IMG/VR virus record: IMGVR_UViG_2563366911_000001
Origin: a virus
Taxonomy: Duplodnaviria; Heunggongvirae; Uroviricota; Caudoviricetes
Reading direction: 5' to 3' (one strand)
Length of the DNA: 64,000 nt
The position numbers were made by a program, and so were the translations under genes. This document shows, one piece after another, positions 4,166 to 41,972 of the stretch. Each line of letters starts with the position of its first letter. Position 1 is the stretch's first letter. The notes beneath the pieces were generated by a model that saw only the letters and a program-made list of their open reading frames with translations, was not told the DNA's origin and did no database searches.

Positions 4166-4366
4166 TTATCTGCTGCCCGGCATTCTCTGTTTAAGCACAA
4201 CCATTTCCTGACGGCATAACACAGCAATAGCAGTCCTGGCTCCAATTTGCTTACCAACCAGGTATTGCTTTACCTCGCGGCGACTCACGCCATCAAGAAG
4301 CATCTTTAACGCTTCACGGGACAATTTGTTGTATTTGCGTGCCATTAATCTACTCCGCAGAACCAT
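4166..4366 (-). CDS. Small basic hypothetical protein (about 59-66 aa)
   Basis: Short ORF immediately downstream of doc; start uncertain. Confidence 0.4.
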
Positions 4367-34387: not shown

Positions 34388-35403
34388 TGCTTAGCCTCTC
34401 CACCAAGGGCATTTACCAGAGCATCAACCAGGCACGAAATTTCACTGGTCAACAGGAAGAAATCTGCGTCCAGTCGCTGCGCTACATCTTCACTATCAAT
34501 ATCAGAGTTCTGCTCAAGCAATTCATCCGCAAATTTGACGCTGGTAAGGCTGAAGTTATGGTCCAGTGTAAATTTAATGCGGTTCTGCCAGTCGAGTGCC
34601 AACTTAGTGACGAGCTTGCCAGCTTCCAGGTGTGTGGAAATTTCATCGCTTCCCAAATCCTGCTTTTTCACTCGGGCAATACCGCCATCCTCAAGCACTG
34701 CCTTAAGTTCTGCCGCATCCCCCATTTGAAATCCCTGTGGAGCACTACCATCACGTACCCAGTCGGTCAGCGTTAATTCAATGGGATTTTCAACACTCAG
34801 GGGAACAACAGGAAGAGAACCCAGAGACTTACGCATAAGCGCGAGCATATCCTCTGCCTGCCGCGCGCTGGCATTGATATAGATACGTTTAGTTGAACCG
34901 TCGTAGATCGCCTGGATAACAGAAAACTTTGAAAAAGCCCGTGGCAGAAGAGAATGCAGAACTTCGTCTTTCAGGGAGTCCTTCTCTGTTTTCTTCAGTT
35001 TACGCGCTTGTTCTTGCTCAAGTTTTTCAATTTTTTCTTGAATAGCTCGCTGGATAACCGGCGGGGGAAGAATTTTTGTTTCGCGCTTTGCTTCAACAAG
35101 GATAAAACCATTTCCATGCATAGCGATAACTTCGGAATTATCACCAAATGGAGATACAAAACCGAACTTGGCCATATCCTGACTACCGCATGGCGTGAAA
35201 AGGATCATTTTCTTTTTATCTTCTAAGTCGGTCAGATCCGCCTCACGAGAAAGTTTATAAATAGTAATGTTTTTCCAGTGCTTAAACATGTTGTAACCCT
35301 TGAATATCAACCACAGAAAGCTCGTCTTTGTAGAAAAAGGCCAGGTTGTGGCACCCCCTCGTTTGAGCGTATGAGCTGGGACCAATTTCGTTCTTCCAGA
35401 CAA
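34384..35403 (-). CDS. hrdC: RdgC-like recombination-associated protein (probable start at 35292, about 303 aa)
   Basis: [12 protein letters not shown]...[13 protein letters not shown]...[22 protein letters not shown] matches E. coli RdgC along its length. Confidence 0.9.
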
Positions 35404-35638
35404 ATGGCTTCAAATCCGTACGGCGAAGCATAAAAACGCGATTTGTTCCGCTCTGATTCCCAATGAGGCAAAAGCCTTCTTTCACCTTGATAGCCTGCAA
35501 GTTGTCGAGTTCACCGCTGGTTACACGGCTATCGAACTCTTTGCGGCTTATTAGCTCCATCTGCATCTGACGACTCCAAACAAATGCCCATTGAAGGGCG
35601 ATGGCTGAATGGTACCGAAAATACGACATAAAAAACAA
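35282..35638 (-). CDS. Small protein upstream of the RdgC-like gene (probable start near 35566, about 95 aa)
   Basis: Listed start lies inside the operator; internal ATG has a GGAG Shine-Dalgarno. Confidence 0.45.
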
Positions 35639-35653
35639 TATTTATTAGAGCAA
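35637..35653 (-). promoter_or_regulatory. C1-type operator ATTGCTCTAATAAATAT with promoter TTGCTC-17-TATGTC
   Basis: 16 of 17 match to operator consensus. Confidence 0.6.
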
Positions 35654-35735
35654 TTTTGCAATAGTTGAACTCCGTGTAGACCACAAACAACCTGAGTTAA
35701 AATAACGAAAATCAGAGCAAATAATTGGTGATGAC

Positions 35736-36020
35736 GTGGCAAGTATTGCAACAAAAGACAGCATTTGTTCGGGGCACGGAGGATTCCCATCCAGGCCTCC
35801 TGTAGAGAGTGAACCACTACTTAAAGTCAACGGAGTCGAAGTGTTAGTTGATGGTAAGCAATATGCACAGCATACCGATGGAAACAGTACGCACGGTGGG
35901 CAAGCTATATCAACCAGGGCATGGTTTACCGTCAATGGTAAAGGGATCGTATGCGTTGGTGACCCTGTTTCATGCGGATCTACCGTAGCGTCCGGAGACG
36001 GCCTGGTTCAGGTAAGTTAG
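35736..36020 (+). CDS. PAAR-like spike-tip protein, 94 aa
   Basis: ICSGHGG...VCVGDPVSCGS pattern typical of PAAR-repeat proteins; GTG start. Confidence 0.55.
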   Translation: MASIATKDSICSGHGGFPSRPPVESEPLLKVNGVEVLVDGKQYAQHTDGNSTHGGQAISTRAWFTVNGKGIVCVGDPVSCGSTVASGDGLVQVS

Positions 36021-36817
36021 GAGATATCATGCTGGAAAAAGACTACCAGTTATCCGCATATAAAAAATTGGCCGCCGCCGGTGGGATGAAAACACCTGGT
36101 GCCATAACATCGGCACGAAACAGTGCTAACACGGCAAAACAGCTTGCAGAAGAATTGATCGGATTAATTTTGGATACAATTGTCTATCCCGACACTATTA
36201 CCAGCTATGTTTCAACGATCAGAACAACCACAACCGGCTTAACGAACATTGGAGAACTGGCAACTAAGCACGCGGACCTGTTGGCTGGTTATGCAGATCT
36301 GTCAATGCTGCTTCAACTCGATATTGGTTGGGATGTTTACTGCCGTGCTAATGAGCGAGAAGTATCAGAACTGCCGATCTCTATTGCCATTGGTGATGTG
36401 ACTATTACTAAATCGCTTGAGGACGCTGTAAACGCGCTTAATACATCAAGTTTAGTCGCTGCTATGGGGGAGATTAACCAGACCCTTAACACTGGCTCAG
36501 GAAGCTCGTCAGGCTCTGGTTCAGGCGGCGGCACTGCCACTCCCCCACCAGCACTAACAGAAGAGCAAATTGAATCTCTGAAAGTAGCAACTGAACAGTT
36601 TGAAGTTGTTTTCAACCAGACAACAGCGCCCACAACTGCGTTACAACAGCAGTATGAACGAGCGAATGAAAGCGCCAACGTAGCCATAACTGCTTATAAC
36701 CATGCTATCGGTACCGCGCTTGCGGAAGCATCAGCAAATAAGGCCAGCACAGCCAGCGCAGTTGCCGCTTTGGTTCCTGATTCTGTTCTTGATGAATTAA
36801 ACAAAGCGGCACAGTAA
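35972..36817 (+). CDS. Hypothetical protein with Gly/Ser-rich linker (probable start at 36029, about 262 aa)
   Basis: ORF; GSGSSSGSGSGGG low-complexity linker. Confidence 0.6.
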   Translation: MRIYRSVRRRPGSGKLGDIMLEKDYQLSAYKKLAAAGGMKTPGAITSARNSANTAKQLAEELIGLILDTIVYPDTITSYVSTIRTTTTGLTNIGELATKHADLLAGYADLSMLLQLDIGWDVYCRANEREVSELPISIAIGDVTITKSLEDAVNALNTSSLVAAMGEINQTLNTGSGSSSGSGSGGGTATPPPALTEEQIESLKVATEQFEVVFNQTTAPTTALQQQYERANESANVAITAYNHAIGTALAEASANKASTASAVAALVPDSVLDELNKAAQ

Positions 36818-36829
36818 CAAAGGACTTCA

Positions 36830-37285
36830 TTGATAATTTTTCTTCAGGAGGAAGACATGTCATTCTTTTCTACGTTAAAAACAGCTTTGTCTTTGAAGGA
36901 GAAACTTGCTGCTACTGGTGTTCTTGTTCTGATTTGCGCACTTGTTGGTGCTGGGTTTGCATGGGAACGTCATCAGCTAAAGCAAGCCATGGAGAAAATT
37001 GGCAGTCTTGATCAGGCTGTTAAGGAACGTGATAAGTCAATAATGGATCTTAACCAGGCCATTGAGACGATGAACAAAGCAGAGCAACATTTTCACAGCC
37101 AGGAAGTGAAAAATGAATCAGAACAAGCCAAGTATGCTGACAGGCAAATGGAACGAAAAGCTGAAGTTCAGAAACAACTGGTTGCGGCGGGTAATGTTCG
37201 CCAGCGTATTCCTGCTGACACTCAGCGGTTGCTCCGGGAGTCGATCAGCGAATTTAACGCCGACGCCGACGCCGACAAAGGTTAA
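36830..37285 (+). CDS. Rz-like inner-membrane spanin candidate (probable start 36857)
   Basis: N-terminal TM helix GVLVLICALVGAGFAW then periplasmic coiled coil. Confidence 0.55.
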   Translation: MIIFLQEEDMSFFSTLKTALSLKEKLAATGVLVLICALVGAGFAWERHQLKQAMEKIGSLDQAVKERDKSIMDLNQAIETMNKAEQHFHSQEVKNESEQAKYADRQMERKAEVQKQLVAAGNVRQRIPADTQRLLRESISEFNADADADKG

Positions 37286-37451
37286 CCACCCTGCCCCCAA
37301 AAGTGCATTTATGTGCAGGATGCCAGAATTTAGCAGTGAATATTTTGATGATCTGCCAGCCTATATCCTTGATACAGAAACGATGCTGAAGGGGATTAAC
37401 AGGAAGAATCGCAACGTTAATGATTACAACCGCGCTATCAGCGGTAACTAA
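37113..37451 (+). CDS. Rz1-like outer-membrane lipoprotein spanin candidate (probable start near 37194), overlapping the Rz-like gene out of frame
   Basis: Lipobox LTLSGC and Pro-rich TPTPTPTKVNHPAP. Confidence 0.5.
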   Translation: MNQNKPSMLTGKWNEKLKFRNNWLRRVMFASVFLLTLSGCSGSRSANLTPTPTPTKVNHPAPKSAFMCRMPEFSSEYFDDLPAYILDTETMLKGINRKNRNVNDYNRAISGN

Positions 37452-37462
37452 AAGGGATTTTT

Positions 37463-37855
37463 ATGTCTGATAAAGTAACAGTAAAGCAAACTATCAACAA
37501 AGCGACTTCAATCTACAAAATTGAGCACATCACTGTTGGCAAGCCAGGATCTGAACAATACCGTCATGCTTTCGAGCTTGCCGATCAGCTTGGTTTAAAA
37601 CACCCGGATTGCATCGAGCATGTATTTCCGACCTATGCTGATGAGCAATGTACTCATGTTCTTACCGAAGAGGATTTTTTCAGCACTGAAGAACGAGAAG
37701 GCGTTGATCGCTGCATTGGTGTGATTTGTTCTTCGGTAAGTGATGAGTTATTCCCTAATGTGCCTGAATATGGTGGTATTGGATACCAATTCCTGTACGA
37801 GGGCGATGAGCTTAAATGCTATGAACATGGTCTTCTCATCGAAAGCGTAGAATAA
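37463..37855 (+). CDS. Hypothetical protein, 130 aa
   Basis: ORF, last gene before oriR. Confidence 0.6.
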   Translation: MSDKVTVKQTINKATSIYKIEHITVGKPGSEQYRHAFELADQLGLKHPDCIEHVFPTYADEQCTHVLTEEDFFSTEEREGVDRCIGVICSSVSDELFPNVPEYGGIGYQFLYEGDELKCYEHGLLIESVE

Positions 37856-37869
37856 TACGACTGCCTTCC

Positions 37870-37894
37870 AACCGGCTACGTTGGCCGGTTTTTC
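37870..37894 (+). terminator. Candidate intrinsic terminator after the 37463-37855 gene
   Basis: AACCGGC-tacgtt-GCCGGTT hairpin followed by TTTT. Confidence 0.45.
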
Positions 37895-37896
37895 AC

Positions 37897-38160
37897 TTAT
37901 CCACATTATCCACTGGATAGATCCAATAATCAGGTCCATACAGATCCCAATTAGATCCATATAGATCCCTGATCGTTGCAGGCCGCGCCACGTCTGGCTT
38001 AGAAGTGTATCGCGATGTGTGCTGGAGGGAAAACGATGTGTGTTGGAGGGATAAAAATGTGTGCTGACGGGTTGCTAATGTGTGCTGGCGGGATATAGGA
38101 TGTGTGCTGACGGGAAAGCCTGGGTAGTTATCACCACTTATAAAAACTATCCACACAATT
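37897..38160. other. Plasmid replication origin (oriR-like): tandem DnaA boxes, five GATC heptamers, five 19-bp iterons (incC), downstream DnaA box
   Basis: TTATCCACA/TTATCCACT at 37897-37914; five GATC at 37920-37974; iterons GATGTGTGCTGGAGGGAAA-like at 38014, 38035, 38056, 38078, 38099; CTATCCACA at 38148. Confidence 0.85.
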
Positions 38161-38173
38161 CGGAAAAAGTAAT

Positions 38174-39034
38174 ATGAATCAATCATTTATCTCCGATATT
38201 CTTTACGCAGACATTGAAAGTAAGGCAAAAGAACTAACAGTTAATTCAAACAACACTGTCCAGCCTGTAGCGTTGATGCGCTTGGGGGTATTCGTTCCGA
38301 AGCCATCAAAGAGCAAAGGAGAAAGTAAAGAGATTGATGCCACCAAAGCGTTTTCCCAGCTGGAGATAGCTAAAGCCGAGGGTTACGATGATATTAAAAT
38401 CACCGGTCCTCGACTCGATATGGATACTGATTTCAAAACGTGGATCGGTGTCATCTACGCGTTCAGCAAATACGGCTTGTCCTCAAACACCATCCAGTTA
38501 TCGTTTCAGGAATTCGCTAAAGCCTGTGGTTTCCCCTCAAAACGTCTGGATGCGAAACTGCGTTTAACCATTCATGAATCACTTGGACGCTTACGTAACA
38601 AGGGTATCGCTTTTAAGCGCGGAAAAGATGCTAAAGGCGGCTATCAGACTGGTCTGCTAAAGGTCGGTCGTTTTGATGCTGACCTTGATCTGATAGAGCT
38701 GGAGGCTGATTCGAAGTTGTGGGAGCTGTTCCAGCTTGATTATCGCGTTCTGTTGCAACACCACGCCTTGCGTGCCCTTCCGAAGAAAGAAGCTGCACAA
38801 GCCATTTACACTTTCATCGAAAGCCTTCCGCAGAACCCGTTGCCGCTATCGTTCGCGCGAATCCGTGAGCGCCTGGCTTTGCAGTCAGCTGTTGGCGAGC
38901 AAAACCGTATCATTAAGAAAGCGATAGAACAGCTTAAAACAATCGGCTATCTCGACTGTTCTATTGAGAAGAAAGGCCGGGAAAGTTTTGTAATCGTCCA
39001 TTCTCGCAATCCAAAGCTGAAACTCCCCGAATAA
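38174..39034 (+). CDS. repA: Plasmid replication initiator RepA, 286 aa
   Basis: Flanked by incC-like and incA-like iteron arrays. Confidence 0.9.
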   Translation: MNQSFISDILYADIESKAKELTVNSNNTVQPVALMRLGVFVPKPSKSKGESKEIDATKAFSQLEIAKAEGYDDIKITGPRLDMDTDFKTWIGVIYAFSKYGLSSNTIQLSFQEFAKACGFPSKRLDAKLRLTIHESLGRLRNKGIAFKRGKDAKGGYQTGLLKVGRFDADLDLIELEADSKLWELFQLDYRVLLQHHALRALPKKEAAQAIYTFIESLPQNPLPLSFARIRERLALQSAVGEQNRIIKKAIEQLKTIGYLDCSIEKKGRESFVIVHSRNPKLKLPE

Positions 39035-41951: not shown

Positions 41952-41972
41952 GAAAGTCAACAAGTGACTTTC
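41952..41972 (+). promoter_or_regulatory. Inverted repeat GAAAGTCA-acaag-TGACTTTC followed by TAAAAT; candidate late promoter
   Basis: Palindrome 40 bp upstream of the 42011 TTG start; half-site identical to the element upstream of pacA. Confidence 0.35.

Follow-up and report, generated by a model that had tools for sequence, protein, structure and literature searches.

Genes for a PAAR-like spike-tip protein and a spanin-like pair of envelope proteins lie next to a plasmid origin at positions 35736–37451 of a 64,000-nucleotide stretch of viral DNA (IMG/VR record IMGVR_UViG_2563366911_000001; the whole stretch is referred to here as the window). In a first-pass annotation made from the sequence alone, three plus-strand ORFs of this region had been singled out, one for a PAAR-like protein, one for an Rz-like transmembrane protein and one for a lipoprotein that overlaps the latter out of frame, and their separation from the baseplate and lysis genes had been called unusual. 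Their positions were confirmed by an ORF listing and by direct reading of the sequence. When a phage collection was searched by megablast with the region 35400–38200, full-length matches were obtained to P1 (OP279344, 98.0%; AF234172/NC_005856, 96.3%) and to P7 (95.4%). A base-by-base alignment with P1 has a mean column identity of 98% and contains one indel; the substitutions are scattered, with a concentration in the 3′ half of upfB. Relative to bacteriophage P1 (Punavirus P1; AF234172 nt 62950–65063), the genes upfC, upfB, ppfA, mlp and upfA are identical in order, strand and overlap, and the neighbours are shared as well, with uhr/hrdC/dmt on one flank and oriR/repA/par on the other. The AF234172 record gives dmt, hrdC and uhr on the opposite strand, followed by Op68/Odmt, upfC, upfB, ppfA, mlp, upfA, oriR, repA and parAB.

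The same gene block is present in 760 PLSDB plasmids, mainly from E. coli (best match 99.7%). Among the 80 P1-like contigs fetched from IMG/VR, 74 carry the order hrdC(−) upfC upfB ppfA mlp upfA repA, and the other six are compatible with truncation at the contig ends. Cronobacter phage JK004, a diverged relative, has the five genes in equal order beside its own repA, with identities of 77% for UpfC, 59% for UpfB, 59% for PpfA and 62% for Mlp. Based on the megablast identity, the common gene order and the PLSDB and IMG/VR matches, the window is that of a P1-type phage-plasmid (genus Punavirus), and the locus is its upfC–upfB–ppfA–mlp–upfA block, located between the divergent dmt operon and oriR. 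Both the P1 identity and the ORFs are established. The unusual placement noted earlier is real, but it is not particular to this window, being a documented trait of P1 that extends across the genus. With very high confidence, the locus as a whole is best explained as the P1 block in which UpfC is the tip on gp5, UpfB sits on that tip and PpfA and Mlp make up a two-component spanin. All of these elements have already been described in P1, and neither their placement nor their identity is new. The discovery value is small, as P1 is a model phage and every element has been named in print: the UpfC tip in 2022, with cryo-EM in 2025–2026, the UpfB tripod in 2026, and PpfA and Mlp in lists of spanins since 2007. 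The value lies mainly in the annotation of these genes; in the majority of the 760 plasmid entries, and in many phage entries, they are still listed under "hypothetical protein", "alanine racemase", "phospholipase" or "endopeptidase".

The first gene of the block, upfC (35736..36020, plus strand), has a GTG start and encodes 94 residues. The suggestion that its product is PAAR-like is borne out by several searches. In a search against PDB sequences, UpfC is identical at 93 of 94 positions to chain 9vyi_A, which is named "UpfC" (1.7e-60), and it matches chains of T4 gp5.4 (5iv5, 8.6e-8; 4ku0, 1.2e-7) as well as the PAAR chain 4jiv_D (3.7e-4). Residues 1–93 match PHROG 281, "PAAR motif" (2e-30), and the Pfam model PF05488 (PAAR_motif) scores 26.4 bits (E = 8.5e-6), 0.6 bit short of its gathering score of 27. 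Membership of UpfC in this fold family is established, and the protein is a PAAR-type spike-tip protein homologous to T4 gp5.4. In an alignment to chain 9f4b_BA, His14, His46, His53 and Cys80 are conserved (contexts GH14, TH53GG and SC80G). Conserved His and Cys residues near the apex form the metal site of PAAR cones.

A PAAR protein encoded away from the tail genes could also be a moron product, made to serve the type VI secretion spike of a bacterium or to carry a toxin, and not part of the virion. The category that PHROG gives to family 281 is "moron, auxiliary metabolic gene and host takeover", the NCBIfam model closest to UpfC is a T6SS PAAR domain, and upfC is distant from the baseplate genes. 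In addition, UpfC escaped detection by virion mass spectrometry, and deletion of upfC leaves the phage viable with unaffected plaques (PMC9024508). However, the score of 36.3 bits against that NCBIfam model (T6SS_PAAR_dom) falls far under its cut-off of 124, so UpfC is not a T6SS equivalog; it is a bare 94-residue cone without an effector extension, and its nearest solved relatives outside P1 are phage spike tips. Following the identification of UpfC as a gp5.4-like tip by HHpred (Gonzales et al. 2022, PMC9024508), its role in the virion has been settled by published structures: two independent cryo-EM studies (PMC12810830, 2026 PLoS Pathogens; bioRxiv 10.1101/2025.07.21.665459, 2025), with a PDB chain deposited, show UpfC as a monomer on the needle formed by the gp5 trimer of P1. 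Absence of the PAAR-like protein from virions had been named in the first-pass annotation as the observation to look for against it, and that point is answered by its position on gp5 in the maps (PMC12810830). The assignment of UpfC to a type VI secretion spike or toxin carrier is rejected as effectively refuted by the virion structures, and its probability is negligible.

With UpfC as the virion spike tip, the protein that carries it is the central spike protein, encoded by gene 5 (25894..26526, plus strand) at a distance of 9.2 kb from upfC. The product of this ORF, which had been taken for the baseplate spike protein, is indeed P1 gp5: residues 1–210 match PDB chain 9vzk_q, "Gp5" (1.6e-136). 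UpfC is a PAAR-fold cone that sits as a monomer on the blunt end of the gp5 trimer, a β-helical spike, and so sharpens the point with which the contractile tail pierces the membrane. Like T4 gp5.4 and the PAAR-repeat proteins of type VI secretion systems (4KU0, 5IV5, 4JIV), UpfC is a monomer of about 95 residues with conserved His and Cys positions that caps the end of a trimeric β-helical spike (PMC12810830, PMC12407873). The gp5.4 gene of T4 is a neighbour of gene 5, but the two genes are 9.2 kb apart here; furthermore, P1 gp5 is devoid of a lysozyme domain, and trimers of UpfB are an added component of the P1 tip (PMC12810830). By analogy to T4 gp5.4, UpfC may matter chiefly on hosts with altered LPS (PMC12407873).

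The next gene, upfB (36029..36817, plus strand), encodes 262 residues from an ATG at 36029 behind an AGGAG Shine–Dalgarno sequence. It lies inside the span covered by the first-pass annotation and was left uninterpreted there. The longest possible ORF opens at 35972, and the upfB start in the P1 GenBank record gives a 281-residue protein that overlaps upfC. The JK004 homologue begins at the same MLEKDYQ as the ATG 36029 start, and the GenBank start is probably set too far upstream. UpfB matches PHROG 1559 (1e-137), and searches of PDB sequences and Pfam returned noise only, with no relatives. UpfB has been reported as a new "tripod" protein, of which three trimers are anchored at the spike tip; this placement was obtained by fitting an AlphaFold3 model into a map of medium resolution (PMC12810830). 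The adjacency of upfC and upfB on the genome matches the reported physical contact between their products, and UpfC, together with the reported UpfB tripod, forms the far end of the tail, which attacks the membrane.

Downstream of upfB, two genes share DNA in different frames. The full ppfA ORF spans 36830–37285, and its likely start is the ATG at 36857 behind an AGGAGG Shine–Dalgarno sequence, which gives a 142-residue protein (36857..37285, plus strand) with the features of an Rz-like i-spanin. Residues 17–35 (LAATGVLVLICALVGAGFA) make up a transmembrane helix and are the peak 19-residue window of the protein, with a mean Kyte–Doolittle value of 2.35. Based on this single N-terminal transmembrane domain, PpfA is predicted to have a type II topology. 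A single-sequence AF2 model (mean pLDDT of 79) contains helices at residues 4–116 and 120–139, with a break at Arg117–Pro119, and suggests that the periplasmic domain is mainly α-helical. No cysteine is present outside the transmembrane segment. The second gene, mlp (37113..37451, plus strand), encodes a 112-residue protein with the features of an o-spanin, that is, an Rz1-like outer-membrane lipoprotein. Its start lies in the +1 frame at 256 nt from the beginning of ppfA; the two genes have 173 nt in common (40% of ppfA), and mlp continues for 166 nt past the ppfA stop. Its ATG is preceded, at a distance of 6 nt, by the Shine–Dalgarno sequence AGGAAG. The lipobox LSGC occupies residues 37–40, with Cys40 as the lipidation position and Ser, not Asp, at position +2, and the mature part of 73 residues contains seven prolines; apart from Cys40, its one cysteine is C68. 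These sequence features are established.

Chance out-of-frame ORFs of about 100 residues do occur, as illustrated by the minus-strand ORF at 36337–36687 within upfB, for which there is no support, and mlp might likewise be a chance open frame in and after ppfA, with only one of the two frames translated. In contrast to such an ORF, mlp has its own Shine–Dalgarno sequence and a canonical lipobox. Over its 173 nt, the overlap DNA of JK004 has diverged from that of the window by 38 mismatches and two indels, and despite this divergence JK004 retains the entire mlp ORF, open from the equivalent ATG, with the lipobox kept as LSAC and with Cys68 kept. The C-terminal half of Mlp, which lies outside the overlap, is also strongly conserved in JK004. 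Furthermore, an overlapped ppfA/mlp pair is found in all 80 of the P1-like IMG/VR contigs fetched, and Mlp matches PHROG 30284, a family in the lysis category (2.6e-76). On the strength of this family match and of the conservation in JK004 and IMG/VR, the chance origin of mlp is rejected and can be given next to no probability; mlp is taken as a translated gene. The JK004 sequence has no internal Met before the lipobox, and the upstream ATG, at 37113 in the window, is therefore favoured as the true mlp start. The annotation of JK004 covers only the non-overlapping tail of mlp. Incomplete calling of o-spanin genes is a typical error of gene callers (PMC6139136).

Within the dual-coding overlap, the sequence GCCGAC is repeated three times (37259..37276, plus strand). 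The repeat reads ADADAD in PpfA and feeds a TPTPTPT tract in Mlp, such that each unit adds Ala-Asp at the PpfA C-terminus and Pro-Thr in the Mlp linker. P1 has two copies; as a result of the extra unit, PpfA has 142 residues here compared to 140 in P1, and Mlp has 112 compared to 110. Two copies are also present in 77 of the 80 IMG/VR contigs, with one copy in the remaining three, and the third unit is rare.

To place the pair among known spanins, both proteins were compared with profile families. PpfA matches PHROG 89, "Rz-like spanin" (2.6e-25). Among matches at E ≤ 1, no Rz or Rz1 Pfam family was found for either protein, and no NCBIfam cut-off for Rz, Rz1 or LysB was reached (TIGR03495, LysB, 18.5 bits versus a cut-off of 92.75). 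By tblastn against the phage collection, matches to PpfA are limited to punaviruses and JK004. The pair therefore resembles Rz/Rz1 in architecture and presumed mechanism, yet belongs to a separate sequence family (PHROG 89 and 30284), and spanins are known to form many unrelated families (PMC6139136). As in lambda Rz/Rz1, P2 LysB/LysC and T4 PseT.3/PseT.2, a type II inner-membrane helical protein is combined with a small proline-rich outer-membrane lipoprotein, and the genes likewise share DNA in different frames. In lambda, Rz1 is "embedded" in Rz, whereas the P1-type ppfA/mlp pair is of the "overlapped" class of spanin gene arrangements, with mlp extending past the ppfA stop. At least one periplasmic cysteine is present in 507 of 528 spanin pairs (PMC6139136), and here it is supplied by Mlp C68 alone; relative to the lambda, P2 and T4 pairs, PpfA is distinguished by the lack of a periplasmic Cys, with one in Mlp, and the genes by the lack of an adjacent holin or endolysin. 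Within 3 kb, no holin or endolysin gene was found, and the genes there are dmt, hrdC, uhr, upfC, upfB, upfA, repA and parAB. A location in a lysis cassette is typical for spanins and is not needed for membership among them.

In agreement with the earlier reading as an Rz-like transmembrane protein with an overlapping Rz1-like lipoprotein, which is upheld by the sequence features, PHROG 89, the helical model and the literature (PMC9025707), we infer that PpfA and Mlp are an i-spanin/o-spanin pair. In that literature, ppfA and mlp are named as the spanin genes of P1, which overlap partially and whose operon is not linked to lyz and lydAB, and their function is described as being without experimental verification (Bednarek et al. 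2022, PMC9025707); the identification itself is credited there to Summer et al. 2007. In the same paper, the labels o-spanin and i-spanin are given to ppfA and mlp, respectively, whereas the sequences show the opposite assignment. The mechanism that can be proposed derives from sequence features and family analogy only. The N-terminal helix of PpfA would hold the protein in the inner membrane, with the long helical rod reaching into the periplasm, and Mlp would receive its lipid at Cys40 and be delivered to the outer membrane. Once the murein had been degraded by Lyz, the SAR endolysin of P1, the periplasm-spanning PpfA–Mlp complex would be free to collapse, and this collapse would join and fuse the inner and outer membranes to complete lysis.

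A different function is conceivable for such a pair, namely that of envelope proteins expressed in the lysogen for superinfection exclusion or serum resistance, as is the case for Cor, Llp and Bor, and not for lysis. The original P1 names, "possible periplasmic function" and "membrane lipoprotein precursor", would fit this role, as would the location of ppfA and mlp, which adjoin oriR/repA/par and lie far from lyz and lydAB. The P1 record shows only predicted sigma-70 promoters (P1ppfA and P2ppfA) before ppfA, an Lpa-type late-promoter box is absent upstream of the block, and the spanin function is a prediction in the literature (PMC9025707). In a genome-wide CRISPRi screen, moreover, upfA, mlp, ppfA, upfB and upfC were non-essential for plaques. 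However, plaque neutrality is the usual behaviour of spanin mutants, and the lack of a plaque defect on knockdown is expected for both a spike tip and spanins under standard plating. The pair also displays the full set of two-component spanin features (type II helical rod, +1-frame proline-rich outer-membrane lipoprotein and periplasmic Cys), both proteins match lysis families of PHROG at the E-values given above, and the P1 literature consulted around PMC9025707 names no alternative spanin candidate. A lysogenic envelope role is rejected as very unlikely, with less certainty than the chance origin of mlp and the type VI secretion role of UpfC.

Between the divergent dmt operon and upfC, and 80 bp upstream of the latter, lies the C1 repressor operator Op68/Odmt (35638..35654, minus strand), which reads ATTGCTCTAATAAATAT on the minus strand; its position was carried over by alignment from the annotation of AF234172, and it is conserved in JK004. 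No upfC promoter is annotated in the P1 record AF234172. To search for late promoters, a model was derived from the annotated LP23 (−22 box AAGTGACTT and −10 box TAAAAT), and the window was scanned for AAGTNACTT with at most one mismatch. LP23 was recovered at 41962, and nothing was found within 35404–35735. For a block of virion and lysis genes, the lack of such a promoter hit before upfC is unexpected. A sigma-70 scan upstream of upfC yielded one weak site at 35697–35725, which is not conserved in JK004, and the total of sigma-70-like sites is no higher than in shuffled sequence. In the P1 RNA-seq literature that was found, the genes from upfC to upfA are not mentioned. As to the timing and promoter of block expression, an unlikely though conceivable arrangement is that the block may be one transcription unit without an Lpa-dependent late promoter, perhaps governed by Op68, in which the tip parts that serve entry are co-expressed with the spanins that serve exit. 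In that event, the spike tip and spanins would constitute an envelope-crossing module scheduled apart from the other virion and lysis genes, and variation in the GCCGAC repeat would change the lengths of both spanins together.

The last gene of the block, upfA (37463..37855, plus strand), encodes 130 residues. UpfA matches PHROG 1453, a family of unknown function (3.9e-61), and has no match in Pfam or NCBIfam. Immediately downstream of upfA, where oriR has its left edge, a terminator-like hairpin is found (37870..37890, plus strand), with a 9-bp stem that includes five GC pairs and a T-run tail (TTTTCACTTAT). Based on the P1 annotation mapped by alignment, oriR begins at about 37876, just after upfA, and the next ORF downstream of upfA in the ORF listing is that of RepA (38174–39034).

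In the introduction of PMC9025707, ppfA is named as the o-spanin gene and mlp as the i-spanin gene. Judged by the sequences of the two products, these labels are reversed, because the transmembrane helix is located in PpfA and the lipobox in Mlp, as predicted for an i-spanin and an o-spanin, respectively. The labels carried by these genes in many other records are also varied, and include "hypothetical", "alanine racemase", "phospholipase" and "endopeptidase Rz". In the record of Cronobacter phage JK004 (MZ188976, L082), a diverged relative with the same five genes in the same order, the mlp homologue is annotated only as its non-overlapping tail (L082 4458-4592). The full homologue is a 110-aa lipoprotein ORF (L082 4260-4592) that starts at position 4260, inside the ppfA homologue.

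Within the dual-coding overlap of ppfA and mlp, a GCCGAC hexamer repeat is observed (window 37259-37276). The repeat is present in three copies, compared with two in the P1 reference (AF234172). Among 80 IMG/VR relatives, 77 have two copies and the other three have one. With each additional unit, PpfA gains Ala-Asp and Mlp gains Pro-Thr, so that both products become longer.

For upfB, the GenBank record of P1 places the start at an ATG equivalent to window 35972, which gives a product of 281 aa and an overlap with upfC. A 262-aa product is more likely, since the ATG at 36029 is preceded by a strong AGGAG Shine-Dalgarno sequence and the JK004 homologue begins at the same point. The block is closed by upfA (window 37463-37855), which encodes an acidic protein of 130 aa with several Cys residues. 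This protein has no match in Pfam or NCBIfam, and its sole match is PHROG 1453, a family of unknown function. Of all genes in the block, upfA has diverged furthest in JK004, with 50% identity. Directly 3' of the upfA stop codon, a terminator-like hairpin composed of a 9-bp stem followed by a T-run (window 37870-37890) lies at or overlaps the left boundary of oriR. The presence of this hairpin points to insulation of the upfC-upfA block from the origin.

No promoter could be assigned to upfC-upfB in window 35404-35735, and none is given for these genes in the P1 annotation. The only sigma-70-like site ahead of upfC (window 35697-35725) is weak and non-conserved. The C1 operator Op68 (window 35638-35654), located between the divergent dmt operon and upfC, is retained in JK004. 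The -22 box of the Lpa-type late promoters, AAGTNACTT, is absent from window 35404-35735. Elsewhere in the window, exact matches to this box are found on the + strand at 41962-41970, 46307, 48928, 59037 and 62121. Of these, the one at 41962 is accounted for by the annotated late promoter LP23, and the remaining four may represent further late promoters.
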